This document shows positions 34 to 62,813 of a DNA stretch of 64,000 nucleotides, one piece after another. The notes beneath the pieces are model-generated. The model saw only the letters and a program-made list of their open reading frames with translations. It was not told the DNA's origin and did not search any database. Made by a program: the position numbers and the translations under genes. Location of the stretch: the IMG/VR virus record IMGVR_UViG_3300017780_003104, positions 64,001 through 128,000 of that record; one strand, given 5' to 3'. Position 1 is the stretch's first letter. Each line of letters starts with the position of its first letter. This stretch comes from a virus. Taxonomy: Duplodnaviria > Caudoviricetes.

Positions 34-61
34 TTGACATTCACTCCTTTTATGATATTTT
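34..61 (+). promoter_or_regulatory. Sigma70-type promoter, no box
   Basis: TTGACA-N16-TATTTT-N6-ATG68. Confidence 0.55.
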
Positions 62-67
62 ATCTAG

Positions 68-523
68 ATGAAGACGTTTGTAAAACATAATTGGGTTAAT
101 ATATTGGTCGGAGTTATCGTAGCTGGCTGTGTTTCATATGGAATTAGTGGTTACGTCCCATATGATAAATCCTTAGCTTTATCAATCCCATTAATTTTAA
201 TGGGATTGTATTTCTTCGATAATAAAACCGTAGTTACTGAAGAATCGTCTAAATTACTTGAGATTTTAGATGAAACGGTTAAGGAACAAGCCACTATATT
301 AGACGAATACGAACAAATTTTCGATTCCCAATTGGTTAAATTGCCCTGTGTGTGCGGTGGAAATACCTTCGAAGGGTTATTTTCCCCAAATACCGAAAAT
401 GTGGTTGAATGTGAAAAATGTAAAAATATGTATCGAGTAAATATCAATTATGATACGGTATTAGTATCTAAGCCTTTGGATTTAAACCAAACCTTTGAGG
501 ATCTCGTTGGAAAAACTGATTAA
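68..523 (+). CDS. Hypothetical membrane protein with C-terminal Zn-ribbon
   Basis: Two N-terminal hydrophobic segments; CVC...CEKC cysteine pairs; preceded by TTGACA-N16-TATTTT-N6-ATG. Confidence 0.7.
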   Translation: MKTFVKHNWVNILVGVIVAGCVSYGISGYVPYDKSLALSIPLILMGLYFFDNKTVVTEESSKLLEILDETVKEQATILDEYEQIFDSQLVKLPCVCGGNTFEGLFSPNTENVVECEKCKNMYRVNINYDTVLVSKPLDLNQTFEDLVGKTD

Positions 524-541
524 TTAAAACCGAGTTATAAT
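520..541 (+). promoter_or_regulatory. Box promoter
   Basis: TTAATTAAAACCGAGT-TATAAT-N8-ATG550. Confidence 0.8.
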
Positions 542-549
542 AAGACCAT

Positions 550-780
550 ATGATAACGATAGAGAAGAAAAATGGTGAAGTTGTTGAGATGACAACAGAT
601 GAATTCAGCAGATGGATGTGTTTAGCTGAAGCATTCTACTTCATTGAAGAAAAAGCAAATGAACTTAAAATAGATGTATCAGATTTATTGAAACCTTTAG
701 CCATTGATGGATATATAAAGGAACGATTTGATGCAATGCGTCATGATATTGGTTGTGAGTTGGCACTTGGTAATCTATAA
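550..780 (+). CDS. Hypothetical protein
   Basis: 76-aa ORF directly downstream of a conserved box promoter. Confidence 0.7.
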   Translation: MITIEKKNGEVVEMTTDEFSRWMCLAEAFYFIEEKANELKIDVSDLLKPLAIDGYIKERFDAMRHDIGCELALGNL

Positions 781-1607
781 ATAGATTCCAATTCTAAATC
801 GATTGAACTTATGTAATCTTGTGTGATTACTGATTTAAACTCATTTAATAATTGGGTTTTATCTAAACCAAGCTCAGTAAACCCAATATAAAAGTTTCTA
901 AATCTTTCTTTTAAATTATTTGGATAAGTTGTACCATTCGGTCTTTCGAATTTATGCATCCATCGTAAAAATGGTAAGCATATTACTTTCTTACCATTTT
1001 TTCTATATTTTTCGTGGATATAGCCTTCCTCACCACCGAATCCTGTAAAATTCTTGTTGAAACCCAGCCAAGAATCAGTTCTACACGAAAAAAGACCCAT
1101 TCCTTGTGCTGGAATCTCAAATGGGGAGTCATCTATATTCATGCCCTTACCATCACTAGCCCATTTCCCCCACATATAACTCCCCCAATGACTTAAATCA
1201 AAATAAGTGCTGACGGTCTTATTATCATCGTATAATAATGGACCATGTAATAGATTTCCATCATCTTCACCAGATTCATAGTAATCTATTAATTTTTTCA
1301 AAGATCCCGGTTCAAGTAAAACGTGGGAATCGATACACATTGTATATGGAGTGTCTGATAATGCAAAAACTTTACCTTTTAGCATACTTGACTGGTAATT
1401 AACAAATGGAAGATACTGAATTGGCTCAGTTACCCAATTTAAAAGTTTTTTAACGGATTCGCCATGTTTACCAGTTGGATTATTATCAACTATTACAAAT
1501 TCGATATCATCCAACACTTCTTTATGATACATTCTAATCGATTGAATTGTAAAATAAAGTCCGTCAAAGTCATCGTGGGTTGCCACACCAATAGTAAGCT
1601 TTCTCAT
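741..1607 (-). CDS. Glycosyltransferase family 2 (GT-A fold)
   Basis: N-terminal LTIGVAT..D, FVIVDNN, DxH/DxD-like CIDSH, GMGLFS and GFGGEE motifs; TAAATA-N6-ATG upstream. Confidence 0.85.
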   Translation of the reverse strand: MRKLTIGVATHDDFDGLYFTIQSIRMYHKEVLDDIEFVIVDNNPTGKHGESVKKLLNWVTEPIQYLPFVNYQSSMLKGKVFALSDTPYTMCIDSHVLLEPGSLKKLIDYYESGEDDGNLLHGPLLYDDNKTVSTYFDLSHWGSYMWGKWASDGKGMNIDDSPFEIPAQGMGLFSCRTDSWLGFNKNFTGFGGEEGYIHEKYRKNGKKVICLPFLRWMHKFERPNGTTYPNNLKERFRNFYIGFTELGLDKTQLLNEFKSVITQDYISSIDLELESIYRLPSANSQPIS

Positions 1608-1619
1608 TGGTGATATTTA

Positions 1620-2483
1620 TTAAAATTTTAATGTTTTACAAGAATATAAACACACTGTGGTATTTGATGTAGTAGTGACCAGTGTTGGTGGTTGTGTGGT
1701 TGTTGTTTCTGGTGGTAATGTAGTGGTTACAGTTATATTTGAGAAATTATTCCCATCTCTCTCATTAGTATTGAATATTAAAGGTGTTGGAGAATTTGGT
1801 GATATCAGAATATTAGTTACATCATAGTTAGGCGAGACTATAAGCGTAGTTGGAACGGGCCAAGCACAACAATCCCTATCATCATCAATAGTCCCCCAGC
1901 TATCTTCACCTGATAATGGTATAGATGGGGTAGTAGTAGGACTATTAGGATCTATAGTTGTTGTAGTTGTTGTAGTGGGAGCTACAGTAGTAGTTGTAGT
2001 GGGAGCTACAGTAGTAGTTGTAGTGGGAGCTACAGTAGTAGTTGTAGTGGGAGCTACAGTAGTAGTTGTAGTGGGAGCTACAGTAGTAGTTGTAGTAGTT
2101 GTGGGTGAAGGAATCTTCAATACATTCCAAAGATCTATTAGATTTTTATCAAAGTCATATACAGAACTTAATGGGATTGCTGACCCCATTCCAAATGCTC
2201 CAAATTTAGTAATACTAAATTCGAGGGGGTAACGTCCACTCCTTCTTCCATTGCTCGCCATGAAATACATATTAGCAAGTGGAGGATCGAATATTGGAAC
2301 ATATGACGAACTTAATAATATATTACCACTGAGACTTGTACTTACATTATATACATAATGAGTGTCAGAATTAACTATGCTATTAATTACACCATCACTA
2401 CTAGATAATAAAGACGAAGCTGTTTGGGACCATCCAAAAGCTGATCCAGACGAAGTAGAAGTTTTGAATATACCAAATGCCAT
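1620..2483 (-). CDS. Thr/Pro-rich (mucin-like) putative virion protein
   Basis: (VAPTTTTT)x5 tract, CC pair, second Thr tract, C-terminal CLYSCKTLKF; located in tail-appendage operon. Confidence 0.7.
   Translation of the reverse strand: MAFGIFKTSTSSGSAFGWSQTASSLLSSSDGVINSIVNSDTHYVYNVSTSLSGNILLSSSYVPIFDPPLANMYFMASNGRRSGRYPLEFSITKFGAFGMGSAIPLSSVYDFDKNLIDLWNVLKIPSPTTTTTTTVAPTTTTTVAPTTTTTVAPTTTTTVAPTTTTTVAPTTTTTTTIDPNSPTTTPSIPLSGEDSWGTIDDDRDCCAWPVPTTLIVSPNYDVTNILISPNSPTPLIFNTNERDGNNFSNITVTTTLPPETTTTQPPTLVTTTSNTTVCLYSCKTLKF
1969..2088. repeat. Perfect 24-bp tandem repeat x5 (GTTGTAGTGGGAGCTACAGTAGTA)
   Basis: Read directly; encodes VAPTTTTT on the minus strand. Confidence 0.95.
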
Positions 2484-2486: not shown

Positions 2487-3614
2487 TTAATATGGTGTTT
2501 CAACAAATAGTTGAGCCGTATTTTTAAATGATAGGACTTTATTTACTGGTATATTTACTGGTGTATCGTAATTAATCACATTGATAATTGAGGTTGTAGA
2601 ACCAGAAAAATATCCAAGTATTATTTGTGATATATCACTACCTCCAACAGTAACCAGTCCATATACGTTTGTATTAGCTGTTGAATTGTTGGTAATAGTT
2701 GGTAATCTATCAGATGTAATATCTAAAGCCGTAATGGTTTCAGTTGGGATATTACTGGCAGCTACGTATATAGTTGAGCTGTAAGGAATACCTGAAATTG
2801 ACGATACTTTGTTAGCATTATTCATTAGTAATATTCTATTTGGAATATTACTAGCTGTGCTTATATCTGTGGTTAAATGGAGAAATCTTTGGAGTGTTCC
2901 ACTCCCACTTAAACCTTGTATGTAATCATCATTTGTAAAGGGTCTAGGTATTCCAATGTCAATAGTAAATGTATTTTTAAAATCACGTATAATTAGAGAA
3001 TCTCCGATACTTAAAGTAATAGCTGGGGTTAGCATGATATAAGCACTAATACTTTGAGTCGGAGCGTATACGATAGTATTAATGGTTTGTGGGACAACTA
3101 CTGGGGCAAATAATCCAGATAACGATCTAGACACTGAACTAGGTGTTGTGGTTAGTGTATTTGAGAAAACTGCTGCTTGGTAAGAACCAGTAACCTCACC
3201 ACCATTAAATGGATTAGTTCCAGTTTTATTACGTATTAATTGTGATGGAGTTGTTACACTACCAGATAGAGATATCTGAATAGTGCTTAGATTTCTAACT
3301 AATACGTAAGCTTTTTCACCTGATGGGAATTGCACATGATCCCCAACATTCATACCAGATGCGCTATTGAATATCACATTACCAGTCTGTCTATATACTG
3401 TATTACCCGATAATGTATAAGTTCCAGTCAATAATTCACTTCCGAGTTGGTTGTGGGTCCAGAAGAGAGTATTATTGATACCCATATATATTTGGCGACC
3501 TGCATTAACTGCCCAACTAGACCATATATTATGTCTTTTACCATAATCAACTATAGTTCCATCCTTTTTTAATATCGCCAAATCGATAACTGCTCCTAAT
3601 ATTGGATCTTTCAT
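2487..3614 (-). CDS. Putative tail appendage/fibre protein (paralog A)
   Basis: Beta-rich S/T/G composition; N-terminus LGAVID..KKDGTIVDYGK.HN and C-terminus VETP shared with 3652-4803; TATAAATA-N7-ATG. Confidence 0.6.
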   Translation of the reverse strand: MKDPILGAVIDLAILKKDGTIVDYGKRHNIWSSWAVNAGRQIYMGINNTLFWTHNQLGSELLTGTYTLSGNTVYRQTGNVIFNSASGMNVGDHVQFPSGEKAYVLVRNLSTIQISLSGSVTTPSQLIRNKTGTNPFNGGEVTGSYQAAVFSNTLTTTPSSVSRSLSGLFAPVVVPQTINTIVYAPTQSISAYIMLTPAITLSIGDSLIIRDFKNTFTIDIGIPRPFTNDDYIQGLSGSGTLQRFLHLTTDISTASNIPNRILLMNNANKVSSISGIPYSSTIYVAASNIPTETITALDITSDRLPTITNNSTANTNVYGLVTVGGSDISQIILGYFSGSTTSIINVINYDTPVNIPVNKVLSFKNTAQLFVETPY

Positions 3615-3651
3615 ATATTCTTATTTATAATTAATGTTTATATAGTAAACC

Positions 3652-10879: not shown

Positions 10880-11542
10880 TTACGCTGTTCTCTTCCAAAT
10901 ATATAGACCAAATGATGGTGGCATGTTATTATGTGCGCCACTACCACCAGCACTTGGTAACACTCCCATATATCTTCCATCCTTTGAATCGTCCGGTCCA
11001 TCGCTTCTAAATCTCGACTCAGTGGTTGGACTTGATTCATTACGATCATTGAACAAATAGAACTGTTCTCCATCTGAAGCTTTAAGACTATGAGTGTGTG
11101 ATGGCATTTCCGATTCGGAAAGGGTGTGTCTATATTCTCCAGAATTTTCCCCCCCGGCTATAGTTACACTAACCCCATTAGAATCAACTCCAGTGCCAAT
11201 CCCTGCGACAAACATCCCCTCACTTATACGAACCCATGTTCCACCCATCGAGTAACCGGGATTTAAATCAACCGCTGTGAAATACACAGTATGGACTGGA
11301 AAAAAACGATTTAAAAGTGTCGTATACTCAGCCTCTGTGTCTACATTTTCGATAACTAACGATCCCACTGTTAATTGTCCACAAATTCTAGCCCCATTAC
11401 AAGTTCTACCTAGACTGAAGGAACTTTCGTTGCCAAGACCATCATACATGGGGGTAAGCCCAGTTTCAGGTAAAGGTTGACCCCCTGAATGTAATAAACC
11501 ATCGAAGGTATCTGCGATATATGTATCTGATAAAGAACTCAT
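10880..11542 (-). CDS. Baseplate/short-fibre protein with gp10 C-terminal-like domain
   Basis: FFPVHTVYFT...NPG..GGTWVRISEG, HTLSESEMPSHTH, HNNMPPSFGLYIWKRTA. Confidence 0.75.
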   Translation of the reverse strand: MSSLSDTYIADTFDGLLHSGGQPLPETGLTPMYDGLGNESSFSLGRTCNGARICGQLTVGSLVIENVDTEAEYTTLLNRFFPVHTVYFTAVDLNPGYSMGGTWVRISEGMFVAGIGTGVDSNGVSVTIAGGENSGEYRHTLSESEMPSHTHSLKASDGEQFYLFNDRNESSPTTESRFRSDGPDDSKDGRYMGVLPSAGGSGAHNNMPPSFGLYIWKRTA

Positions 11543-11571
11543 TGTTTTTATTTAGTTTAAGAACTGTTTTT

Positions 11572-13362: not shown

Positions 13363-15635
13363 TTATAATTTTCGAAAGTTACGGTATTTATGATAGTCGT
13401 TGATGGGAGAAATGATGCTTCATCATTTCTTATATGTTGTTCGATATTATTTTTCATATCGGGTGTTGCATTATATAGATTCTTCAATACTATATTTATA
13501 CTATTCGTTTTGAAGGTGGAATTACTACATATTTGTTGAATCGACTCAACATTATCAGTGCTATTTCTAGTACCAGATGGTAGAGTTAGGTATAATGCAT
13601 CAACTTTCGTATTACCGTTTAAAATTGGATATATTGCAGTCGCATCCAATGGAATATATGTATTCTTTAATACAATATTATCAAATCCGTCTGGTGTGTA
13701 TAATGTGATATTAATCGGTTTATCATCATTTTTATAATAATAGAAATCTCCATATAATATATTTTTATTTATATACTTATATGGCGTAACAGTGAATGTA
13801 TATATTAATGTAGTGTTTAAGTATACATACCCAATTCCATTATAACCATCAAATGAAATTGATATAAAATTAGTTTTTAGGGATTTTATAGATGCCGTAG
13901 TTGTGAATGTATCTATTTGTAAATCTGGATATAATGGATCGAATATAATATATTCAAATGATAATAACTCTCCATTTTTAATTATAGTTACACCACATGG
14001 TATTTCATTTCTATTACTTTGGACTTTCCATGATGTGTCATCTCCTTCAAAATAGAAAGATAGTGTGAATTTACTAGTATCATTAATTGATTCGAAAAAA
14101 TTACTAGGATATGTTAATTCATCCTCGGTCCTACAAATAGTATTTGGTATATTTGTTACGGAATTTTCAGATATTCTTTGATATTTATATTTTCTATTTG
14201 GTGAAAATGCTAAATCACTTCGTTTATCAAAAAATTTAGTTTGTGTTATACTGGATGAAATTCCTAAATTTCCATCTATTATAGATTCGATATAAGAATC
14301 TAATGGAGATTTAATATACATCGAGTATGCTTGCATAGCTTCTTCTTTTTCTATTAGATCTGGATAATAATATCTATCAACCCATGATATCTCTTTAGTA
14401 TCTGGATTTCTATATAGCCAAGTGCATAATAAGTGTTGATTATTATTTAAATGTGTTGAATTTTCATCTAATTTATATATTTTATCGGCATATTCTGGTG
14501 TATAATATGGGAATGCGCCAGCTTCTATAAATTTACAATCATTTATATTTATTTTAGAAAATGGATACATATTAGATGGAGTTTCAATTATATTATCACC
14601 TTCAAATATTTTATATGTTTGATTTGCGAAAGAATAATTCAATTCTAATTCATCGGATGCTTCCTTTTTAATATTTTGAAATATTGAAGTATAGTTTCTA
14701 AAGTTATCCACAAATGTAGTGTAAGTATTTCCAGATAATAATATATTTGAATTTGAAAAAGTGTCCAATGGAGTTAATTGATTTTTCAATACTATAATAT
14801 CAGTTAAATAACTATCATCTGAGTATTTCCTATGTAATAGATAGTTATTCTTTAGGTTAAATTCACTTTTATCTACATCGATGGTGTTATTATTATTATA
14901 TGTTATAAATGATGTATTGAGTAATGTATCTGGTGTCGTATATACATTTCTAGAGATTTGAAATGGATTTGAAATATAATCACTAGTATTTGAGACTAAT
15001 ATTAGTGTTGAATTATTTTTAATTAACGTGTAATTGCCTATGTTAGTCGATTTAAAAAATAATATTTTATTAGATGATTCAGAAAATAAATATGTGAAAT
15101 CTTGTGGATTTATATATTCTTCATCGAAAGATAATTTAAATTCATTTATGAAAATTATCTTGTTATCAATGTCGGAAGCCAAGTAATATGTAATATTATT
15201 TGAGGATTTATAGTATATTCTACATTTATTATCATCTAATAATTCTATATTAAATTTTATATCAGATGGGGTATTGGTGAAAATGGGTACCCCATAATTT
15301 TTAGAATCTCTAATATCCCCCTTTAATACATATGGAGTGATATCAATTTTGGAAAAATTTAAATAATAATTACCAATTATTATATCTGTGATTATATTTG
15401 TCGCTTTAAATCTTTCGGATAAAAGAGGAAATATATCGGAGAATAGGTAATTATTAGTTAGATAGAAATTACTATAGTTATTAACTTTAAAATCCTTTGA
15501 ATTGGATAAACATAATGGGAAATTCAAAGTGTAGTTTCCAAAATTTCTCTCAAATTGTAAAAAGTTAACGCCATCCACCGTAGATTGTAAAGTGGGTGAT
15601 GTTAATGCGGATAATGGATATTCTACGGAAGTCAC
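13359..15635 (-). CDS. Putative virion structural protein (possible LamG-like C-terminal half)
   Basis: 758 aa; GTG start with TAAATA-N5; beta-rich C-terminus (FTLSFYF...FISISFDG...VYLN). Confidence 0.5.
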   Translation of the reverse strand: MTSVEYPLSALTSPTLQSTVDGVNFLQFERNFGNYTLNFPLCLSNSKDFKVNNYSNFYLTNNYLFSDIFPLLSERFKATNIITDIIIGNYYLNFSKIDITPYVLKGDIRDSKNYGVPIFTNTPSDIKFNIELLDDNKCRIYYKSSNNITYYLASDIDNKIIFINEFKLSFDEEYINPQDFTYLFSESSNKILFFKSTNIGNYTLIKNNSTLILVSNTSDYISNPFQISRNVYTTPDTLLNTSFITYNNNNTIDVDKSEFNLKNNYLLHRKYSDDSYLTDIIVLKNQLTPLDTFSNSNILLSGNTYTTFVDNFRNYTSIFQNIKKEASDELELNYSFANQTYKIFEGDNIIETPSNMYPFSKININDCKFIEAGAFPYYTPEYADKIYKLDENSTHLNNNQHLLCTWLYRNPDTKEISWVDRYYYPDLIEKEEAMQAYSMYIKSPLDSYIESIIDGNLGISSSITQTKFFDKRSDLAFSPNRKYKYQRISENSVTNIPNTICRTEDELTYPSNFFESINDTSKFTLSFYFEGDDTSWKVQSNRNEIPCGVTIIKNGELLSFEYIIFDPLYPDLQIDTFTTTASIKSLKTNFISISFDGYNGIGYVYLNTTLIYTFTVTPYKYINKNILYGDFYYYKNDDKPINITLYTPDGFDNIVLKNTYIPLDATAIYPILNGNTKVDALYLTLPSGTRNSTDNVESIQQICSNSTFKTNSINIVLKNLYNATPDMKNNIEQHIRNDEASFLPSTTIINTVTFENYK

Positions 15636-15643
15636 AATATTAT

Positions 15644-40740: not shown

Positions 40741-40751
40741 TAAATAAATAT

Positions 40752-45407: not shown

Positions 45408-45451
45408 AGGGATATTTACTCTTGACATGTCCACTATATTAAATAAAGTAG

Positions 45452-46758: not shown

Positions 46759-46782
46759 CATTAATTAAAACCGAATCATGAT
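46755..46782 (+). promoter_or_regulatory. Box promoter with -35
   Basis: TTGACA-TTAATTAAAACCGAAT-CATGAT-N6-ATG46789. Confidence 0.85.
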
Positions 46783-46788
46783 CGAGAC

Positions 46789-47298: not shown

Positions 47299-47321
47299 TA
47301 TATTAAATATTAAATATATTA

Positions 47322-48616: not shown

Positions 48617-48634
48617 TTAAAACCGAAATATCGT
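48613..48634 (+). promoter_or_regulatory. Box promoter
   Basis: TTAATTAAAACCGAAA-TATCGT-N6-ATG48641. Confidence 0.85.
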
Positions 48635-48640
48635 AGGCCC

Positions 48641-49555
48641 ATGAACTTGGACCTAAAACAAACACCATTTATGAAGGTGTCGGATATTGTAATACCTGAC
48701 ACCTTCTATAATAGGCTTAAAACGGGCATAGATGCGCTTGATAACATATTTGGTATGGGATTACTTCCCGGATCAACAATCACGCTCAAGGCACTACCGG
48801 GAGTCGGAAAGAGTGTATTCTCTTTAACTCTATCTGAGATGCTTACCGATTGTGGTTATAAAGTTGGATATACTTCGGGCGAGGAGGATATTCGTCAACT
48901 TGCGTATAATTGTAAGAGACTTGGGATTGAAAATACTGAAATTAGCAATATCACTGATATTGACGAAATTTTAAGTATAATGCCAGATAAGGATTTCATG
49001 GTTATTGATTCATTTCAAACATTAACGACAACTAGAAAATTAAATTCTAGAGAAAGGATCAAATATTTCAATGACAATCTTGTAAGAGTCGCTAAGGAAC
49101 ACGAATGCACCATATTATTCGTCGTTCAAGAATTGGCCGATGGAACGATCAGAGGTGGCACTTCCCTATTATATGCGGTGGATGTCAATATGCAGATATT
49201 AAAAAACAAGGAAGATAAAAATTCTAGAATTTTTGATGTTTACAAGAATAGATTTGGTGCTACAATGCAACACGAAGCGAGATTCGGACCTTCAGGTTAT
49301 GAATTTGTGGGTGAATATAGCGAAACAGAAGATATGGAAGACGAAAAAACTAAGAAAGCCCCAGTAAAGGAGAGTCGAAAATCCGATATCCTTAGTATGG
49401 ATGAGCCACCATTAATTACCGTTAAACGTGTAATGGATGAATTAGATATCAAAGAACAAACTGCAAAATTGCTCCTATCTGAACTTGAGAATGATATGAA
49501 ACTTATCAAGTATGGTAGAGGGATGGATGCTATTTGGAAATTTTATAAACAATGA
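48641..49555 (+). CDS. RadA/Sms-like RecA-family ATPase (no Zn finger or Lon domain)
   Basis: ALPGVGKS, YTSGEE, VIDSFQ, GGTSLLYAVDV, KNRFG. Confidence 0.82.
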   Translation: MNLDLKQTPFMKVSDIVIPDTFYNRLKTGIDALDNIFGMGLLPGSTITLKALPGVGKSVFSLTLSEMLTDCGYKVGYTSGEEDIRQLAYNCKRLGIENTEISNITDIDEILSIMPDKDFMVIDSFQTLTTTRKLNSRERIKYFNDNLVRVAKEHECTILFVVQELADGTIRGGTSLLYAVDVNMQILKNKEDKNSRIFDVYKNRFGATMQHEARFGPSGYEFVGEYSETEDMEDEKTKKAPVKESRKSDILSMDEPPLITVKRVMDELDIKEQTAKLLLSELENDMKLIKYGRGMDAIWKFYKQ

Positions 49556-51024: not shown

Positions 51025-51593
51025 AAAAGAAATTATTTTTAGATTTTGATAATACATTGGCACACTCGCTATATGCTTCCAATAAAAAACATGCAGATGA
51101 TTTAATTTACGAGTATGGTGAGGTGTTTGAAGGTGAAAAATTCCATCTTAGGGGTGATGGGTGGATGACTACATTTAAAAGATCATGGACTGACGAACTT
51201 CTAAGATTCTCTAGAGAATTATACGGTGAGGATAATGTATATATTTTAACAACTGGAACAGTAGACTACATCGGATGGTGTAATGTTGTATTAAAATTGG
51301 AATTTGATCCTAATACGAATATTTTCGGTAGAGAGGATATAGTCAGACAAGATATTCATCCAAAATTCGTAGATACATTCAATGTATTAGTCGATGATCT
51401 GTTATACTATGATCATAGTATAGGTGATAGGTGTAAGGTAAATTTCCTAAACAAGATACCACCAGAACAATTCATTAACGTGGAGTATTTTAGTGTGCAT
51501 CAAACATCAACCCTAATAAGTGATAAGGATTATATCAAAGAACTCAAATGTAGAATTGTAGAAGCATTCGAATCAATTAAAACCGAAATATAA
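51021..51593 (+). CDS. HAD-superfamily phosphatase (NIF/FCP1-like)
   Basis: LFLDFDNTL motif I; LVDD motif IV. Confidence 0.75.
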   Translation: MKKKLFLDFDNTLAHSLYASNKKHADDLIYEYGEVFEGEKFHLRGDGWMTTFKRSWTDELLRFSRELYGEDNVYILTTGTVDYIGWCNVVLKLEFDPNTNIFGREDIVRQDIHPKFVDTFNVLVDDLLYYDHSIGDRCKVNFLNKIPPEQFINVEYFSVHQTSTLISDKDYIKELKCRIVEAFESIKTEI

Positions 51594-51594
51594 T
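51573..51594 (+). promoter_or_regulatory. Box promoter
   Basis: TCAATTAAAACCGAAA-TATAAT-N6-ATG51601. Confidence 0.85.
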
Positions 51595-51600
51595 TGCGAC

Positions 51601-51789
51601 ATGATCAAAGAACTATTACGAGAAATTAAGGAAACTTGGGGATATGAGACTGAGGAGTTGAATGATATCCGAGAAAAAATGGAAGAAGTAGGACATTCAT
51701 ATTTTTGGATGGGTTATGGTGAACGAACAGAGGAAATGCGAGAAGCTTCTGTATTTACAGGATACGGAAAACCGGAAGACTTTGAATAA
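51601..51789 (+). CDS. Hypothetical protein
   Basis: 62 aa; box promoter N6-ATG. Confidence 0.65.
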   Translation: MIKELLREIKETWGYETEELNDIREKMEEVGHSYFWMGYGERTEEMREASVFTGYGKPEDFE

Positions 51790-52951: not shown

Positions 52952-53221
52952 ATGAAAATTAACATAAGTCCGACTAGTGGTGATATAACTATATTTGCTG
53001 AATCTAGTGATTCCTTTAATAGTTTTGGTGGGGAGTATTGGGATGATATATCACATTATGCTGAATATGGCTTAGATTTAGGTGATATATCAATCAATAG
53101 CATATCACCTAAGCAATTTAAACAGTTGGCGATTTCTATGATCAATCATCTCATGATTAATGGTCATGATTTTTCAATTGGTGATGATGTAAATGGATCA
53201 TATATTAGATCCATTAATTAA
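52952..53221 (+). CDS. Hypothetical protein
   Basis: 89-aa ORF. Confidence 0.55.
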   Translation: MKINISPTSGDITIFAESSDSFNSFGGEYWDDISHYAEYGLDLGDISINSISPKQFKQLAISMINHLMINGHDFSIGDDVNGSYIRSIN

Positions 53222-53235
53222 AACCGAAGTATACT
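53214..53235 (+). promoter_or_regulatory. Box promoter
   Basis: TTAATTAAAACCGAAG-TATACT-N6-ATG53242. Confidence 0.85.
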
Positions 53236-53241
53236 ATACCC

Positions 53242-54345
53242 ATGAGATTACCCACACTTTATTCCCGAACAAATACCGGAGCAGTCCAAACATGGACAGT
53301 TGAAATCCAAGGCGACTCATATAGAACCATTCATGGTCAATTAGATGGTAAATTACAAATCACTGAGTGGACTGTTTGTATTGTCACTAATGAAGGTCGT
53401 GCTAATGAGAGAAATCCCGAGCAACAGAGTATATTCGAATCTACTGCGATGTTCACTAAAAAGAAAGATACTGGATACTTTGAAAGACTTGAAGATATCG
53501 ATACATCTTTTTATGTTGAACCCATGCTTGCTAAAAAGTGGGAAGATCGTAAAGACAAGGTAAAATTTCCTGTATATTGTCAACCAAAACTTGATGGTAT
53601 GCGAGCAGTTATCACTAGAAATGGTGCTAAGTCTCGTAATGGTAAACCTTGGGTGACTATTCCACACATTTTAGAAGCATTAGAACCTGTCTTTGACAAG
53701 TATCCAGACTTGGTATTGGATGGTGAACTATATAACCATGATTTGAAGTTTGACTTTAATAAGATTTCGTCTTTGATTAAGAAGACGAAACCAACGCCAC
53801 AGGATTTGGAAGAAAGTGCTAAACTTGTGCAATTCTGGTGGTATGATACAGCTAGTGATAAACACACATTTACTCAACGTGCTAGTTGGATTAATACTTT
53901 ACATGATCGTTATGAATTGGATGAGTGTATTCAAATGGTATGCACCCATAAAGTGAGAGATAATAGTGAACTTGATGCATGGTATGATACATATCTCGCA
54001 CATGGCTATGAAGGTCAAATGATTCGTCTTGATACACCTTATGAATTTAAGCGTTCTGCCAATCTTCTCAAGAGAAAAGAGTTTCAAGATGAAGAGTATA
54101 AGATTCTCGATATCGTGGAAGGTGTTGGTAATCGTGCGGGATTAGCTGGTGCTATGGTTTTTGAAAATGAACTAGGACACCAATTCAATTCCAATATTAA
54201 GGGGGATAGAAAATATCTAAAAGAATTGTTGGTATATGCAGATTCATATATTGGGAAATTGGCAACAGTTGTATTCTTTAATAAAACTCCCGATAGGCAA
54301 ATTCCACGTTTCCCATTCGTTCATAGTATCCGCGATTTTGAATAA
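53242..54345 (+). CDS. ATP-dependent DNA ligase
   Basis: Motif I QPKLDGMR, LDGELY, EGQMIR, RS..LLKRK, PRFP. Confidence 0.95.
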   Translation: MRLPTLYSRTNTGAVQTWTVEIQGDSYRTIHGQLDGKLQITEWTVCIVTNEGRANERNPEQQSIFESTAMFTKKKDTGYFERLEDIDTSFYVEPMLAKKWEDRKDKVKFPVYCQPKLDGMRAVITRNGAKSRNGKPWVTIPHILEALEPVFDKYPDLVLDGELYNHDLKFDFNKISSLIKKTKPTPQDLEESAKLVQFWWYDTASDKHTFTQRASWINTLHDRYELDECIQMVCTHKVRDNSELDAWYDTYLAHGYEGQMIRLDTPYEFKRSANLLKRKEFQDEEYKILDIVEGVGNRAGLAGAMVFENELGHQFNSNIKGDRKYLKELLVYADSYIGKLATVVFFNKTPDRQIPRFPFVHSIRDFE

Positions 54346-54354: not shown

Positions 54355-54391
54355 TCTTGGTATCTGAGACTAAATAGTTTCATGGCCAAGA
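54355..54391 (+). promoter_or_regulatory. Hairpin with late promoter in the loop, sequestering the endonuclease start codon
   Basis: TCTTGG..TGAGACT-AAAT-AGTTTCA-TGG-CCAAGA; ATG 54382 lies in the 3' arm. Confidence 0.6.
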
Positions 54392-55104
54392 AAAAATATG
54401 ATCATATATTAATAGAAGACGTAATCAAAGAATATGTAGAAGACTTATACTCCACCATTCAACTAGCAGAGAAATATAATGTTAGTGAATGGTGGATAGC
54501 TGATAGGTTGAAAAAAGCTGGAGTAAAAATAAGAAACCGTGGAGGTGGAGTTCATATGGTGGATATATCTGGAGAACGATTCGGATATTATACAGTAATA
54601 AACAAATTAGAAAAGGAGAATAATAATAGAGGTGCAATATGGCAGGTAGTATGTGACTGTGGTAATGTTCGTGAGGTTCTTAGTTATCACCTAAGATCTG
54701 GAGAATCGAAATCATGTGGAGATTGTTTAGAACATCATAATTGGAAAGGTGTTGGTGAGATGAGTGGAAATGATTTCGCTAATATTCGAAGAGGCGCAGA
54801 GAAACGAAATATGATATTTGATATAAGTAAGGAATATGTATGGGACTTATATTTAAAACAAGATAAAAAATGCGCTTTAACTGGATTAGATATAAGATTT
54901 GTGAGAGGATATGAAAACCATAGGAAAGCAGCAAAAACAGCATCTCTAGATAGAATAAATTCAAAATTGGGATATGTCAAGGGTAATGTTCAATGGATTC
55001 ATAAAGTGGTGAATATTATGAAATGGCACTTGGATGAAGATTACTTTATAGAAATGTGTAGAAAAGTAGTAGAATATAACGAAAGTGAAATCTCTATTAA
55101 TTAA
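54382..55104 (+). mobile_element. Free-standing homing endonuclease (His-Me finger/HNH-like)
   Basis: HTH N-terminus, VCDCG..SCGDC, CALTG, SLDRINSKLGYVKGNVQWIH..N.MK; own TAAATA-N5-ATG. Confidence 0.82.
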
Positions 55105-55118
55105 AACCGAAATACAAT
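55097..55118 (+). promoter_or_regulatory. Box promoter
   Basis: TTAATTAAAACCGAAA-TACAAT-N6-ATG55125. Confidence 0.85.
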
Positions 55119-55124
55119 ATCGAT

Positions 55125-55751
55125 ATGGTAGAATACCCATCAATACAGAATAGTTCAAAAGCCCCCCGTAAAGAATGTATAGCATTCGATAAACTTGATG
55201 GGTCTAATTTTAGAGCTAAATGGACTAAGAAACAAGGATTCTCTACGTTTGGAACTAGAACACAGTTGATAGATGAAACTACACCTTTTTGGTGTGATAT
55301 GGTTTATCGATTTAAGAATAATCTTAGCGAAACTTTAGAGAAGCTTATTCTTAAGGAATATCAAAATGAAAGAGAAGTGATAGTATTCGGTGAATATTTC
55401 GGGGAAAATAGTTTCGCTGGGAGGCACGAAGAAGAAGACCATAAAATTGTAGTATTCGATGTTTTAGTAGGACATAAGAATCGAAAATTTATTAAACCTA
55501 GAGATTTTGTAAAATTACTTTCAGATAAGATTGAGATACCTAGAATAGTTTATGAGGGTAATCTAAATGATGATCTTATTAAGAGAGTCAGATCAGATGA
55601 ATTTAATACCTTTGAGGGAGTTATCTGTAAAGGAACACAATCGGTAGGCAATGCTATGGGTGGTATATGGATGGCTAAGATTAAAACACAAAAATACCTA
55701 GATAGTCTTAAAACTAGATTTGGAGAAGATTGGGTGAAATACGCAGAATAA
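55125..55751 (+). CDS. RNA ligase (Rnl2-like nucleotidyltransferase, minimal)
   Basis: KLDGSN, FGEYFG, FDV, EGVI, AKIK motifs. Confidence 0.8.
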   Translation: MVEYPSIQNSSKAPRKECIAFDKLDGSNFRAKWTKKQGFSTFGTRTQLIDETTPFWCDMVYRFKNNLSETLEKLILKEYQNEREVIVFGEYFGENSFAGRHEEEDHKIVVFDVLVGHKNRKFIKPRDFVKLLSDKIEIPRIVYEGNLNDDLIKRVRSDEFNTFEGVICKGTQSVGNAMGGIWMAKIKTQKYLDSLKTRFGEDWVKYAE

Positions 55752-56151: not shown

Positions 56152-56387
56152 TTATAAATTCAATATCAGGGGATGACAATATCAATAAAGTTTTAAACGC
56201 ATCTTTATATGCCACCTTAAAGACATTAACTGCCGAAAAATATATAACTCCCGAACAGTCGAAGGAATTTGGGGAAAATTACGTTGCGGTCTTTGTAAAG
56301 AAGGACGGAGGATTTGTTGAATGGATGAAAGCTAAATTTGGAAAAACTTCTGATATGGTTGTAGTGATGAAAACGTTTGTTGATTAA
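56148..56387 (+). CDS. Hypothetical protein
   Basis: 79-aa coupled ORF. Confidence 0.55.
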   Translation: MIINSISGDDNINKVLNASLYATLKTLTAEKYITPEQSKEFGENYVAVFVKKDGGFVEWMKAKFGKTSDMVVVMKTFVD

Positions 56388-56401
56388 AACCGAAATATAA
56401 T
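56380..56401 (+). promoter_or_regulatory. Box promoter
   Basis: TTGATTAAAACCGAAA-TATAAT-N6-ATG56408. Confidence 0.85.
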
Positions 56402-56407
56402 CGCACC

Positions 56408-56626
56408 ATGAAAAGAAGTTTTTGGTTCCATTATAATAAGCCTGAATCCCGTAAAGTGGGAAAGCCTCAGATTACCGTTCACTATATGGGTGCTTGTCAC
56501 ATAGTTGACAATTTAAAATGTAATGTTCCAATAGCTGGAAAGCTTAGAAAGACACAACCCTTTTGGGTTATAGCTGGGAAAACATCTTCCATCGAATTTG
56601 AAGATGGATTAGCAACTATTAATTAA
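56408..56626 (+). CDS. Hypothetical protein
   Basis: 72 aa; flanked by two box promoters. Confidence 0.7.
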   Translation: MKRSFWFHYNKPESRKVGKPQITVHYMGACHIVDNLKCNVPIAGKLRKTQPFWVIAGKTSSIEFEDGLATIN

Positions 56627-56640
56627 AACCGAAATATAAT
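56619..56640 (+). promoter_or_regulatory. Box promoter
   Basis: TTAATTAAAACCGAAA-TATAAT-N6-ATG56647. Confidence 0.85.
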
Positions 56641-56646
56641 CACACT

Positions 56647-58029
56647 ATGAAATTGAAAATCACAGAAGGAGCAGATCCAAATTATTTGGCAACTGTTGTA
56701 AAAGTTCCCACTATTAAGGAACATCCAAATGCTGATAAATTGGAAATTGTCGATGTTTTTGGTAATTCTATTATTATTGGTAAGGGTTCTTACACTGAAG
56801 GTGAACTCGTTGTTTACTTTCCAATCGAGAGTGCCATTTCTCTTAAGTTTTTGTCTTGGGCAAACCTAAGAGATAGTGCCGAAATGAATGCAGATGGTAA
56901 GACTAAGGGTTTCTTTGGAAAACATGGCCGAGTCAAGGCTATTAGTCTTAGAAGCATTCCATCACAAGGCTTTCTATTTAAAGTATCTGAACTAGTAAAA
57001 TATTATGAAATTGATGAAAACACGTTTAATCTTGGGGATACTTTTGATACTGTCGGTGATGATATCTTGGTTAAGAAATATATTAAAGGAACCGACAGAG
57101 GACAAGGTGAACAAAACGTAAAGAAGACCCGTGTTCCGAAATGGTTAGATAAGACCATTGGAGTTATGCCAAGACCTATTCGTAGAAATGCTTATATTTT
57201 TATTAATTCTTGGTATAATCGAAATAGCGAAGGTATTAAATCTCAAATCGTAGATGGAGAATTTAGATTCCACTACAAGACAGAACAACTTGGCCGAAAT
57301 ATTTTCATATTGAAGCCTGAAGATTCTATAACTATATCTAGTAAGATGCATGGAACTTCTGCAATCTTATCTAATATCGTTTGTAAGAAACCATTCAATC
57401 CAATTAGAAGTATTGGAAATAAATTTGGTGCGAAGATTCCATCGACTGAATATAAATTTGTGTATAGTTCAAGGTCTGTATTGAAAAATCGTCGTGATGG
57501 AAAATTTACAGACGATGTTTGGGGTATTATTGCGTCTGAATTAAAGGATGAAATTCCAGAAGGTTATACTGTATATGGCGAAATTGTGGGGTATACTCCC
57601 GGTGGTGCTATGGTTCAGAAGAATTACGATTATGGTATAACTAGGGGTAAGTGTGAATTTTTTGTATATCGAATCACATATAATCTATCCGATGGAAAGG
57701 TTAAGGAATTGGAATGGTATGAAATCGAAGAATTTTGTTATGAGCATGGTATGAGGAATGTTAAGGTTTATTACAATGGTTTGGCAAGTGATCTATTTGA
57801 TATTCCACTTGATAATGATTGGCATGAAACCTTTTTATCTAAACTCAAAGATAATCACCTTGATAATGTTTGTGAACAATGCACCACAGGTTCTATTAAT
57901 GAGGGTATTGTTCTTAGAATTGAAAGTAGTGAAAAGAAAACTGCATTAAAATTTAAAAGTCCTAAGTTCTTGATTCAAGAGTCGGCAGCAAGAGATAATA
58001 ACGAGGAAGACATGGAGGACGATAGTTAA
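56647..58029 (+). CDS. RNA ligase, DRB0094-like family
   Basis: N-terminal IKEHPNADKLE..G..VVYFP..S, KMHGTS motif I, YGEIVG, EGIVLR. Confidence 0.85.
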   Translation: MKLKITEGADPNYLATVVKVPTIKEHPNADKLEIVDVFGNSIIIGKGSYTEGELVVYFPIESAISLKFLSWANLRDSAEMNADGKTKGFFGKHGRVKAISLRSIPSQGFLFKVSELVKYYEIDENTFNLGDTFDTVGDDILVKKYIKGTDRGQGEQNVKKTRVPKWLDKTIGVMPRPIRRNAYIFINSWYNRNSEGIKSQIVDGEFRFHYKTEQLGRNIFILKPEDSITISSKMHGTSAILSNIVCKKPFNPIRSIGNKFGAKIPSTEYKFVYSSRSVLKNRRDGKFTDDVWGIIASELKDEIPEGYTVYGEIVGYTPGGAMVQKNYDYGITRGKCEFFVYRITYNLSDGKVKELEWYEIEEFCYEHGMRNVKVYYNGLASDLFDIPLDNDWHETFLSKLKDNHLDNVCEQCTTGSINEGIVLRIESSEKKTALKFKSPKFLIQESAARDNNEEDMEDDS

Positions 58030-58147: not shown

Positions 58148-58724
58148 AGATTACGGATATATAGTGAAGAATAACTTGTGCCTTTTTCAAAAAGGTCCAC
58201 TATCTCAATGGTGGGGCGGTTTTAAAGGACAGGATTCATCTTTTAAGGTTGATATAAATGAATTATATAGTTATTATACTGGTGACAATAGTGGATTACT
58301 AAGTAATATCTCAAGGGAATATAAACACTTATATTTTAATTGTTGTGAGCAATGGATGATGGCATGTAAGGCTATTTTATTTGATGATGTTGATACCTTT
58401 AAATTGATAATGGATGAAAAATCACCATCTAAACAGAAAAATTTAGGCAGAGTCGTATCAAACTATGATCAAGAAGTTTGGGAGATTTATAAATACAGTA
58501 TTGTTCTCCGAGGTAATGAACATAAATTTGAACAAAATCCAGAATTGAAAGAATTCTTAATGAGTTTCAATTATTTTACTATATTTGCCGAAGCTGCGCC
58601 ATGGGATAAAGTTTGGGGAATTGGTCTAGGTCCAGAAGACCCCAAATCATTAGATATTAATACATGGCAAGGTGAGAATCTTTTAGGTAAAGTATTAATG
58701 GATGTGAGACGTAGTATTGATTAA
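58134..58724 (+). CDS. NADAR family protein (YbiA-like)
   Basis: LSQW, EQWMM..KA.LF.D, KNLGR.V, GNEHKF.QN, EAAPWD.VWGIG, G.NLLG..LM. Confidence 0.92.
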   Translation: MMKSEDYGYIVKNNLCLFQKGPLSQWWGGFKGQDSSFKVDINELYSYYTGDNSGLLSNISREYKHLYFNCCEQWMMACKAILFDDVDTFKLIMDEKSPSKQKNLGRVVSNYDQEVWEIYKYSIVLRGNEHKFEQNPELKEFLMSFNYFTIFAEAAPWDKVWGIGLGPEDPKSLDINTWQGENLLGKVLMDVRRSID

Positions 58725-58738
58725 AACCGAATTATAAT
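58717..58738 (+). promoter_or_regulatory. Box promoter
   Basis: TTGATTAAAACCGAAT-TATAAT-N6-ATG58745. Confidence 0.85.
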
Positions 58739-58744
58739 AACGAT

Positions 58745-59434
58745 ATGAGTGAAGTATATCAAATAATTACAGACGAAGCAGCCCTTCGAGAATATATCGA
58801 ATGGTTGCCTGATTGTAAAGAAAACGAGCAGTTTTATTTGACACTGTTTTCCCGAAAGAAGTATTGTCCAGAGATGCCTTGGATCAAAAGTGACAAAGGA
58901 CAACTTGCTAGAAAGACTAGTTCTAAAGATTATCTTTATGATAAGATCGCTCAAATGGAGTGTAAGGTTGGTGCTTATAGAATGGAGGGCAATCCCGTTC
59001 CACAAAAAGCACTGGCTTGTTATGTATCAGTGAATCCGAGAGACTTGTGGAGAGCTACGCTTCGTAGTATCGGTAAGTTGGCTACGGTGCTGGAATGTGG
59101 TGGTAGGAACTCCAATCCCCATCAAGAAGTAATGTCTGAAATTCAGAAGAACACGGGTACACGTAAGTATATCGGATTTGATATCGATGATAAAGACGAA
59201 ACACTAATTCGGAATTGTATCGATACCGCTAGTGGTATGTGTGATGTGGTAGAAACCCGTGGTGGTTATCATCTATTTGTCCATAAGGATAAAGTTGATA
59301 AGATCAAGGGTAAGAACACTTGGTATCAGGAGTTGTCTAAACATTCTGATGTTCAAGGTGATATCATGTCACCTCCTTGTGGAACATACCAAGGTGGGCA
59401 TACGGTCAGGTTTAAATATAGGTGTAAAGACTAA
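58745..59434 (+). CDS. Putative AEP/PrimPol-like nucleotidyltransferase
   Basis: hhhDxD (IGFDIDD) and T.GG.H (ETRGGYH) motifs. Confidence 0.5.
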   Translation: MSEVYQIITDEAALREYIEWLPDCKENEQFYLTLFSRKKYCPEMPWIKSDKGQLARKTSSKDYLYDKIAQMECKVGAYRMEGNPVPQKALACYVSVNPRDLWRATLRSIGKLATVLECGGRNSNPHQEVMSEIQKNTGTRKYIGFDIDDKDETLIRNCIDTASGMCDVVETRGGYHLFVHKDKVDKIKGKNTWYQELSKHSDVQGDIMSPPCGTYQGGHTVRFKYRCKD

Positions 59435-60672: not shown

Positions 60673-61342
60673 GTTTCCAACCTTTATGAGATTTATGTCT
60701 ATCGGGTTTGGTGAAGAGTCTATGTATTATTCGGGCATTTAAATGATATTTGCGTGCAAATTCACACATATTTTCTCCGACGATAATATCTCCAAAATCC
60801 TTATGGGTCAAAACTCTTGTTTTTCTATTAAATTCAGATTCTGGGTATGATATATTGGCCGAGCACCACCCCTTCATCTGTTTCTTTTTCCCTTTAAGTA
60901 TCTTAGACATGGAAGATCGATCAACTCCGATATAATTAGAAGCCTCTGTCATCGAAGCAAAACTTATAATCTCACCAGTCTGAATATTTTTAATAGCACA
61001 GGGAATTTTTAATAATTCTGAACATCTATATTCATTTCCGAGGGTCATGTTGAAATTGGGTTTAATATTTGCGTTATATCTTTTAATATAAACTTCTTCT
61101 TTCAAAGCAATTTCATTATCTGTCAAATATGATAATTCCTCTATTATAGTGTAAATAAAATCAGACTTCCCATATTTATTGTAATGATTTTGTAGATATG
61201 GATTTTTATGTTTGTTGGTTTTAAGATAATATCTATGATTGCTCCATCTAATTTTTATATTTGTGGAATATCCGATATAAATTCTTCCCGTCGATACACT
61301 TTTAATATGATAAATTCCTCGAATTTGGGGTCCAATAGCCAT
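60638..61342 (-). mobile_element. Free-standing GIY-YIG homing endonuclease
   Basis: GIYHI..GRIYIGYS, E..YI, FN motif, NUMOD-like C-terminus; TAAATA-N5-ATG; 3' end overlaps pth2 antisense. Confidence 0.88.
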
Positions 61343-61356
61343 ACATTTATTTAGTC

Positions 61357-61384
61357 TTGACACTCATTAAAACCATGATAAAAT
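61357..61384 (+). promoter_or_regulatory. Degenerate box promoter with -35 at the edge of the GIY-YIG insertion
   Basis: TTGACA-CTCATTAAAACCATGA-TAAAAT. Confidence 0.7.
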
Positions 61385-61428
61385 ATGAAAAATTTGAAGA
61401 AGTCACAGATCACTTACCACTATTATGA
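61375..61428 (+). pseudogene. Displaced duplicate pth2 3' end (KFEEVTDHLPLL*)
   Basis: 9/12 aa identical to the pth2 C-terminus KFIGLTDHLPLL; its TGA overlaps the ATG of the next gene. Confidence 0.8.
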
Positions 61429-61877
61429 GTATGTTCGACAAATATAAATTTCTACATGGATTACCATTAGAAGGTCAAAAAATAATCTTTAAAAGATGTC
61501 CTATGAGTTGGTTTACCAATGTAGTAGAGGATTCTAAAAGATTGGTAATTGATCAGGAATACACGGTCAGGAAAACCCAATTAAACTCTTCATCTACGTA
61601 TGTTTGGTTAGAGGAGTTTCCAAATATTTTTGATCCTAATGATCTTAATGATGGAAGGGATCAACCATTTTTTTGTATGAGTAGTTTTGAGTGGATTAAG
61701 CCCGAACCTAAATTAGAGGATTTAATAGGATTTAATGTTAGAGACTTAGCAACCATTAATAATATTTTTGGATGGGGTGTTGAACTAGATGGTAAAGTTT
61801 GGTTATGTGGTGATCCCATGTTAATAATTGAATATGGAATTCATAACACTGTTGTAACAGCTAAATTTAAAGAATAA
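61425..61877 (+). CDS. Hypothetical protein
   Basis: 150-aa ORF; ATGA overlap with the pth2 relic. Confidence 0.65.
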   Translation: MSMFDKYKFLHGLPLEGQKIIFKRCPMSWFTNVVEDSKRLVIDQEYTVRKTQLNSSSTYVWLEEFPNIFDPNDLNDGRDQPFFCMSSFEWIKPEPKLEDLIGFNVRDLATINNIFGWGVELDGKVWLCGDPMLIIEYGIHNTVVTAKFKE

Positions 61878-61881
61878 TAAT

Positions 61882-62076
61882 ATGAATATGATTAGTGAAA
61901 TGTGTGAAAATAGTAAACCAACACCGGAACAAATTTCGGAATATAAAAATGAGAGTGATCATGATAAGAGGATTGAATTAGCTTATGAATATCAAATCTC
62001 TAAAGCGGATTTGTGTTCGGAAGATTACATTGAAATCTTAGATGATATGTATAAAGCTTTAAATGAAACATTATAA
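61882..62076 (+). CDS. Hypothetical protein
   Basis: 64-aa ORF. Confidence 0.55.
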   Translation: MNMISEMCENSKPTPEQISEYKNESDHDKRIELAYEYQISKADLCSEDYIEILDDMYKALNETL

Positions 62077-62763
62077 ATCTAAATCCCTTTTTATTTCCAT
62101 GATTAATGATTGTATGTTGTCGATATTGATCCTATTACCTTTGGATATATTCTCTTTAGCCCACATGGGTTGTAGGTTTTTATAGTAAAAACATATTTTT
62201 TGATGATCATCTTTGGTGAAATCAAAAAAACTACAAGGGATAATGTGATCTATATGCCAACCATCATGACCATAATTATCCCATGACATTCCCATAGTAA
62301 ATTTAGACTCTAAATTTATTTTCAATTCTTCAAATGAGATACCAGTCATATTAAGAGTGGATTCCTTTTTACTTCTTCCCTTTAATGCAGATCTCATCCT
62401 ATCTCTCATATTTTTAGCGATTTTGTTGGTAGGATTTTTTAGCCAGTTATTTCTTTGTATTCTTGCTTTAATCTTATAATCTTCGGATGAAGATCTTTTC
62501 CTTTTTTCGATTAAAAATTTTTCTCTATATTCAGGATCAGTTGACATTCTTAGTTTAAAATATGCATTAGTTTTTTTAATTTCTTCTACGGTCTTTTTCT
62601 TTATTTTTTCTGGATGATTTGATCTATATTTCTTAATACTAAGTTGATTACAGGATTTACAATAACTCCTGATACCACTTTTTCCTAATTTTTGTTTGCT
62701 AAAATTATCCAACGTTTTCTCTATCTCACATTGACTACATCGCTTGACATTTACTTCACACAT
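62071..62763 (-). mobile_element. Free-standing HNH homing endonuclease
   Basis: CSQC..CKSC Zn finger, WHIDHIIP..F..C..Y.NLQPMW..EN..KGN; TAAATA-N5-ATG. Confidence 0.85.
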
Positions 62764-62813
62764 GCTATTATTTAATATATTCGGTTCGAAAACCGAAGGA
62801 AATACTCAAAATT

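Follow-up and report, generated by a model that had tools for sequence, protein, structure and literature searches.

Start-abutting promoters and an apparently leaderless expression program in a distant T4-superfamily phage

The stretch of viral DNA analyzed here (the window) comprises 64,000 nucleotides (nt), bases 64,001–128,000 of the IMG/VR record IMGVR_UViG_3300017780_003104, a freshwater tailed phage of the Caudoviricetes; the whole record has 211,724 bp with direct terminal repeats and contains ~34% G+C and 66% A+T. Three classes of promoter-like elements were found next to the start codons of this phage, namely, a 20-nt conserved box (P1, AATTAAAACCGAAnTAnAAT), a late box (P2, TAAATA), and TTGACA-N16-TAnnnT (P3), and Shine-Dalgarno (SD) sites were scarce before its genes. 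A preliminary description of the window had proposed that the genes are expressed from leaderless mRNAs with the help of translational coupling. Leaderless mRNA from start-abutting promoters plus coupling is also the best-supported reading of our data and is probably correct, with the transcription start sites, leaderless translation, and timing of the classes being predictions from sequence and the labels "early" and "late" following gene content only. Wherever an in silico test could discriminate between a start-codon promoter and either chance or an mRNA signal, the promoter was favored. The reading is backed by an encoded homolog of the T4 late sigma factor gp55, the box geometry, depletion of the late box on both strands of genes, a P1 promoter at a tRNA gene, the pyrimidine preceding the start codon, terminator-adjacent boxes, conservation in relatives, and the lack of SD sites.

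The large terminase (window 31317–33098) is ~31% identical to the terminases of T4-like cyanomyoviruses, and T4-type families were also matched by the tail sheath, tail tube, and baseplate genes. Judged by these matches, the phage is a distant T4-superfamily myovirus. Megablast against 50,697 deposited phage records found no near relative; at least 10 metagenomic studies of freshwater, rivers, runoff, and soil contained near-identical DNA. The whole genome carries 22 tRNA genes. Neither the actinophage marker WhiB nor the cyanophage marker psbA was found in the phage, and the atlas neighbors of its aminotransferase, looked at for host identification, were mostly viral.

The late box and its distance to start codons

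On both strands of the whole genome, TAAATA occurs at 336 sites. The histogram of its distance to ATG has one pronounced maximum, 43 sites at 5 nt, compared with 2–14 sites at other distances, and 40 of the 43 TAAATA-N5-ATG sites open an open reading frame (ORF) of at least 50 amino acids. In 30 order-3 Markov genomes, the same arrangement occurred 10 times on average and 18 times at most; thus, the peak in the distance histogram stands well out from randomized controls. Within the window, 28 TAAATA-N5-7-(A/G)TG sites open ORFs of at least 50 amino acids (N5 at 18, N6 at seven, and N7 at three sites), with ATG at 22 and GTG at six of them. Subtracting the site at 30924–30937, which lies in frame inside a gene, leaves 27 gene starts over the whole window, and subtracting the site at 63458, past the end of the range covered by the preliminary description, leaves 26, exactly the number of genes that the description had counted with TAAATA 5–7 nt before the start; the mostly 5-nt spacing that it had noticed was likewise seen in these sites.

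TAAATA is the rarest of the 15 hexamers composed of four A and two T in the whole genome. Compared with synonymous-codon shuffles, it was depleted inside genes on the sense strand (0.68-fold, z -5.3) as well as on the antisense strand (0.72-fold, z -4.0), whereas five control hexamers of the same composition gave ten counts, none of which was depleted. Avoidance on the antisense strand is not expected of a signal in mRNA, and this indicates that TAAATA acts as a DNA-level signal.

By class, the late box precedes 57 of the 288 called genes, 25 of them in the window, and these genes encode virion components, including the sheath, tube, baseplate wedge, and neighboring structural genes. The six positions of TAAATA are invariant, position -13 is mostly A, and position -12 is variable. 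The sites have an AT-rich spacer and no conserved -35 element overall (TTGACA at N16-17 in five of 57), and they lie on both strands. Seven divergent late gene pairs are separated by gaps of 28–87 nt, six of them 28–44 nt, that contain just two opposed boxes. Moreover, in two cases a terminator hairpin with a T-run is immediately followed by a late box, at distances of 17 and 24 nt to the start codon.

A BLAST search with T4 gp55 matched genome positions 43129–43398 (38% identity, E 2.7e-13). The corresponding ORF (genome 43030–43482; 150 amino acids) matched phrog_234, "late sigma transcription factor" (E 3.9e-26), and weakly matched Sigma70_r2. The T4 late box, TATAAATA, spans -13 to -6; variants with A at -13 are known, and phage Aeh1 has an (a/g)C variant at -13/-12 (PMC2988020). 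In T4 box numbering TAAATA occupies -11 to -6, and with N5 the A or G that opens the start codon therefore becomes +1. The (A)nTAAATA element is probably read by the gp55-type late sigma of the phage. No second sigma factor beyond gp55 and no phage IF3 homolog was found in the genome; a T7-like RNA polymerase gave no match either, a weak result since the search control matched in no genome.

The P1 and P3 classes, Shine-Dalgarno sites, and coupling

About 50 copies of P1, in the form AATTAAAACCGAAnTAnAAT-N6-ATG, occur genome-wide, and the class heads 52 of the 288 genes, nine of which are in the window. In nearly all copies, the distance from AAACCGA to ATG is exactly 21 nt, and the hexamer keeps T-12, A-11, and T-7. 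In two copies TTGACA was found exactly 16 nt upstream of the -10 hexamer, indicating that the conserved box fills a sigma70-type -35/-10 spacer. The base before ATG was C or T in 51 of the 52 copies, which fits the usual rule of a pyrimidine at -1 and a purine at +1 of a start site. In line with this rule, all 134 promoter-abutted starts are purine first, comprising 126 ATG, eight GTG, and no TTG.

P1 is not confined to protein-coding genes: further copies head a tRNA(CUA) gene and a noncoding stretch upstream of tRNA-Lys. The protein-coding genes under P1 are small early-region genes, of unknown function, and located at genome 110–172 kb and ~195 kb. The tRNA, whose anticodon CUA reads amber codons, lies at genome 196159–196232 on the minus strand, ~68 kb past the window, and its P1 promoter has a TTGACA -35 element. 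ARAGORN called this gene "tRNA-Pyl," and TAG is the rarest stop codon of the phage (13 of 288 genes); the product may be a suppressor tRNA. At genome 172000–178200 on the plus strand, about ten small genes in succession are headed by a P1 subvariant, AATTAAAACCAAAnTAAGAT-N6-ATG, which may represent a separate temporal subclass. At genome 150600–150676 (plus strand), P1 is followed by a small hairpin and then by TTGACA-N16-TAAGAT-N6-ATG in front of a gene of 551 amino acids, which by this layout would have two promoters, one leadered (~48 nt) and one leaderless.

The P3 class, TTGACA-N16-TAnnnT-N5-9-ATG, has ~20 sites genome-wide, mostly N16, and precedes the genes for DNA polymerase, helicase, thymidylate kinase, and sugar-modifying enzymes. 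Together with bare -10 elements at 5–8 nt, it accounts for 25 of the 288 genes, two of them in the window. P3 looks like a host sigma70-type promoter, and a sigma70-type layout (TAnnnT as -10, with TTGACA, where present, 16–18 nt upstream) is common to P1 and P3. The preliminary description had listed nine genes with a TAnnnT hexamer 6 nt before ATG. All nine sites exist, but eight of them share the longer P1 box and the ninth, at 68, is P3; moreover, the supposed TAnnnT at 46789 reads CATGAT within a P1 box.

SD-like 4-mers at -18 to -4 were found before 23 of the 288 starts (8%), compared with 11% upstream of internal ATGs, and before only three of 96 P1 and P2 starts. The same pipeline found them before 67% of T4 starts, so the reported lack of SD sites was borne out. 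Altogether, ~47% of the genes have a start-abutting promoter and ~35% are tightly coupled, that is, 102 of the 288 genes lie no more than 12 nt from an upstream same-strand gene, and 46 gene pairs genome-wide overlap by 4 nt in the ATGA-like manner. In the window, 30 of the 38 genes without a start-abutting promoter lie within this distance, and the count by class leaves seven genes in none of these classes, in agreement with the earlier statement that the remaining genes are mostly coupled.

From these data a mechanism can be proposed. The host sigma70-type holoenzyme would read P3, P1 would be read likewise or with a factor recognizing the conserved spacer box, and the gp55 homolog would read the late box. 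In all three classes the -10 element, with N6 after TAnnnT or N5 after TAAATA, would make transcription begin at the initial base of the start codon, and the resulting mRNAs would begin with 5′-AUG or 5′-GUG and be translated leaderless without SD interaction. Genes without a promoter would be translated, again without SD, by ribosomes that terminate and reinitiate at ATGA-type overlaps or at gaps only a few nucleotides long. Given that many neighboring late genes are boxed and terminators are few, late transcripts would be nested, and each such gene would be 5′ proximal on one of them.

Relatives and alternative readings

In relatives whose terminases are 64–85% identical, the same N5 peak was found, and SD-like 4-mers preceded 0–15% of starts. 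At orthologous starts the hexamer and its spacing are kept between variable flanks and spacer sequences, and GTG starts are kept as well. P1-N6-ATG was found in 42 exact copies in the most closely related complete genome (206,590 bp), versus none for a reversed-pattern control. Of the seven ORF-caller starts that the preliminary description had corrected, four (23145, 23180, 29968, and 31283) are backed by orthologs in relatives. More distant relatives, with terminases 46–47% identical (loci L030–L036), have SD-like 4-mers at 7–15% of starts and N5/N6 sites mixed with ~19-nt leaders; the ~19-nt leaders occur at the sheath gene, with mixed N5–N9 spacings elsewhere. This clade may represent an intermediate stage toward the leaderless layout. 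In T4 (70–169 kb), however, the late box lies 14–34 nt from ATG (two at 52 and 73 nt), none at 5 nt, with SD at 67% of starts (86 of 128), and in Pelagibacter phage Mosig it lies ~14–28 nt from ATG, one at 5 nt, with SD at 69% (33 of 48). Thus, given the conventional late-box distances and SD sites of T4 and Mosig, the arrangement seen here is a derived trait of the clade and not a general feature of the T4 family.

Several points weigh against a leaderless program. Public runs that hold the phage DNA are all of DNA type and none is of RNA type, so no 5′ end was observed and the transcription start sites come from promoter geometry. A terminase search of 185,579 prokaryote genomes found no relatives and did not identify the host, and the reading presumes a host able to translate leaderless mRNA. 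The starts of the 288 called genes were set by simple ORF rules and checked against orthologs in part, for 15 window genes. About 18% of the genes (52 of 288) have neither a start-abutting promoter nor coupling, and the pyrimidine at -1 is weaker for P2 (37 of 57 sites). T4 gp33 and gp45 had no BLAST match in the genome, nor did PF02916 and PF09116; therefore, the late machinery may differ from that of T4, although divergence beyond detection is possible. A review describes the role of gp33 homologs in T4-related phages as less obvious (PMC2988020). Finally, short leaders are implied at some genes, for example by the N10 spacing of the terminase gene, and the distance at which the gp55 homolog would set the start is taken from T4 numbering.

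The last two points also speak for an alternative in which the elements do serve as promoters but initiation occurs slightly, by a few nucleotides, upstream of the start codon and yields near-leaderless mRNAs with leaders of 1–8 nt and maybe another way of ribosome loading. The N6 and N7 variants at 10 of the 28 late-box sites in the window, the P3 spacers of 5 to 9 nt, and the spacing at the terminase gene, which ranges from N6 to N12 in relatives, would all fit such leaders, and the terminase and certain other genes probably do have them. As a general explanation, however, this is unlikely, because the dominant N5 after TAAATA and N6 after TAnnnT are the canonical distances from -10 to +1, a pyrimidine at -1 precedes A at +1 in nearly every P1 copy, and no start codon is pyrimidine first.

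A different extension, likewise unlikely, is that the clade uses leaderless initiation exclusively as a take-over. The host would then use leadered and possibly SD-dependent mRNAs, the phage would reprogram initiation through factors or ribosome modification to restrict efficient translation to its own transcripts with 5′-AUG or 5′-GUG, and a new sigma-appropriation factor would act at the P1 spacer box. Such a take-over would be the T4-family counterpart of the IF2/IF3 shift that is reported for phage phiYS40.

It is rather improbable that TAAATA is an AU-rich non-SD signal in the mRNA, loading ribosomes or binding a regulator on transcripts that start further upstream. The motif does occupy the position of a ribosome-binding site and stands before consecutive genes of same-strand clusters, and another start signal might be expected in a phage without SD sites. 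Nevertheless, the equal depletion of the hexamer on the antisense strand of genes does not agree with an RNA signal; TAAATA is the core of the T4-family late promoter and a gp55 is encoded; and an invariant hexamer at rigid spacing is unlike degenerate AU-rich enhancers. In addition, boxes stand directly after terminators and fill the 28–44-nt divergent gaps, the 102 coupled genes are presumably translated without TAAATA, and no RegA homolog was found in the genome.

That the pattern is a mere by-product of AT-rich sequence or of upstream TAA stops beside the next start is scarcely credible and is already refuted by the simulations and controls: the base composition would favor it and some boxes do overlap the upstream stop (e.g., 24817–24823), but the simulated genomes fall far short of the observed N5 count, same-composition hexamers behave differently, the TAA of the box is the upstream stop only at an 8-nt gap, which is rare, and divergent starts, which lack a same-strand gene upstream, carry boxes too.

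Among the candidate sources of the motif, stop-codon overlap was rejected on account of the rarity of the requisite 8-nt gap. Bacteroidota promoters consist of TTTG and TAnnTTTG elements; a Bacteroidota-type AU-rich start signal, considered in view of the missing SD sites, was also rejected, as the elements here are TTGACA and TAnnnT and the late box is depleted on the antisense strand.

Individual sites, known systems, and implications

The promoter-like sites of the window are listed in Table 1. At 30924–30937, an internal isoform of 186 amino acids could be expressed from its own late promoter, or the site could be due to chance. At 44233–44256 (plus strand), TAAATA is followed by a (TA)n run in an 18-nt spacer before the endolysin-like gene that starts at 44257; such a late promoter may be leadered or prone to slippage. 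Three tandem TAAATA copies lie at 47292–47316 (plus strand) before the start at 47322, with N5 only for the last. Outside the window, the repeat (AAAGGAATAG)n, arranged in tandem at genome 19817–19860 on the minus strand, immediately precedes the ATG of a gene of 380 amino acids.

Table 1. Promoter-like elements adjoining start codons, in window coordinates
Feature	Position	Strand	Remark
P3 TTGACA-N16-TATTTT-N6-ATG, start 68	34..70	+	sigma70-type promoter
P1 box AAAACCGAgtTATAAT-N8-ATG, start 550	526..552	+	spacing exception
Late box TAAATA-N6-ATG, start 1607	1605..1619	-	
TAAATA-N7-ATG, start 3614	3612..3627	-	
TAAATA-N6-ATG, start 11542	11540..11554	-	
TAAATA-N5-GTG, start 15635	15633..15646	-	
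TAAATA-N7-ATG, start 18846, 900-aa protein	18844..18859	-	divergent from 18934
TAAATA-N6-ATG, start 18934	18922..18936	+	
TAAATA-N5-ATG, start 22306	22304..22317	-	box kept in relatives
Back-to-back late boxes, starts 23145 (-) and 23180 (+), both N5	23143..23182	both	34-nt gap
TAAATA-N6-GTG, start 24829	24817..24831	+	box overlaps upstream stop codon
TAAATA-N5-GTG, start 25327, baseplate wedge phrog_219	25316..25329	+	GTG kept in relatives
TAAATA-N5-ATG, start 29968	29966..29979	-	
Terminator hairpin + T-run (30309-30345), then TAAATA-N6-GTG, start 30296	30294..30345	-	arrangement kept in relatives
TAAATA-N5-ATG	30924..30937	-	in frame inside gene 30366..31283
TAAATA-N7-ATG, start 31283	31281..31296	-	divergent from terminase gene
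TAAATA-N10-ATG, terminase large subunit, start 31317	31301..31319	+	short-leader exception; N6-N12 in relatives
TAAATA-N6-ATG, start 33108	33096..33110	+	
TAAATA-N5-ATG, start 33741, tail sheath	33730..33743	+	
TAAATA-N5-ATG, start 36192, tail tube	36181..36194	+	
Terminator hairpin + T-run (36775-36824), then TAAATA-N5-GTG, start 36836	36775..36838	+	arrangement kept in relatives
TAAATA-N5-GTG, start 38962	38951..38964	+	
TAAATA-N5-ATG, start 40752	40741..40754	+	
Back-to-back late boxes, starts 45407 (-, N5) and 45452 (+, N6)	45405..45454	both	44-nt gap
P1 CATGAT-N6-ATG, start 46789	46767..46791	+	TTGACA exactly 16 nt upstream of -10
TAAATA-N5-ATG, start 47322	47311..47324	+	third of three tandem boxes
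P1 AAAACCGAaaTATCGT-N6-ATG, start 48641	48619..48643	+	
P1 TATAAT-N6-ATG, start 51601	51579..51603	+	
P1 TATACT-N6-ATG, start 53242	53220..53244	+	
TAAATA-N5-ATG, start 54382	54371..54384	+	
P1 TACAAT-N6-ATG, start 55125	55103..55127	+	
P1 TATAAT-N6-ATG, start 56408	56386..56410	+	
P1 TATAAT-N6-ATG, start 56647	56625..56649	+	
P1 TATAAT-N6-ATG, start 58745	58723..58747	+	
TAAATA-N5-ATG, start 61342	61340..61353	-	
TAAATA-N5-ATG, start 62763	62761..62774	-	
TAAATA-N5-ATG, start 63469	63458..63471	+	just past the range of the preliminary description

The late class resembles the T4 late system in having a gp55 homolog, a TAAATA core at -11 to -6, an AT-rich spacer, no conserved -35 overall, promoters on both strands, and virion genes as targets. 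It differs from T4 and Mosig in that their boxes lie ~14–34 nt upstream with an SD site in the leader, whereas here the box lies 5 nt upstream and no SD is present. Furthermore, the box carries A/n instead of T/A at -13/-12, near the Aeh1 variant, and gp33 and gp45 were not detected. The lambda cI mRNA from PRM begins with a 5′-terminal AUG and is translated without SD; that, however, is one gene in an SD-using phage, whereas here the arrangement would be the default for about half of the genes.

In Deinococcus-Thermus bacteria the -10 region is adjacent to ORFs (PMC12340547), and in these bacteria, Mycobacterium, and Deinococcus deserti, TAnnnT abuts ATG or GTG and the 5′ end of the RNA is the start codon (PMC12340547, PMC4007540, PMC4633059). 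Those systems cover about a quarter to 60% of cellular genes, whereas the present one is viral and uses three classes of promoter, of which a phage sigma specifies one. In the Thermus phage Lalka27a, transcription starts six bp downstream of TAnnnT and most transcripts begin at the A or G of the initiator codon (bioRxiv 10.64898/2026.04.20.719267), and the mostly leaderless transcripts of the Thermus phage phiYS40 are reported to show the same behavior (PMC3594737). The two phages share with ours a phage-wide program, the spacing from -10 to start codon, dense late promoters, and opposed pairs in divergent gaps. They are not, however, reported as T4-like, the late -10 of Lalka27a is TAGGGT, and the host phylum is rich in leaderless mRNAs; their start sites were mapped experimentally, whereas here the late class is of gp55 type and the starts are deduced.

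Since phage-wide leaderless programs are known in Thermus phages, the kind of program is not new. In the literature searched, no leaderless T4-like phage was described, and the combination of start codons fused to a gp55-type box, loss of SD sites, and a new 20-nt promoter class in one clade of the T4 superfamily is apparently unreported. If the reading is true, a T4-superfamily lineage dispenses with leaders and SD sites and has three promoter classes fused to its start codons, and the T4 late-transcription module would be shown able to work alongside leaderless translation. The host would be constrained as well, in that it must translate mRNAs beginning with 5′-AUG or 5′-GUG and reinitiate without SD. 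In practice, the sequence rule fixes gene starts in the clade, including GTG starts and starts that ORF callers set too far upstream, and both the P1 box, with 20 nt, and the late box, with 6 bp, are compact enough to be candidates for use in SD-free expression, as well as handles for finding related phages.

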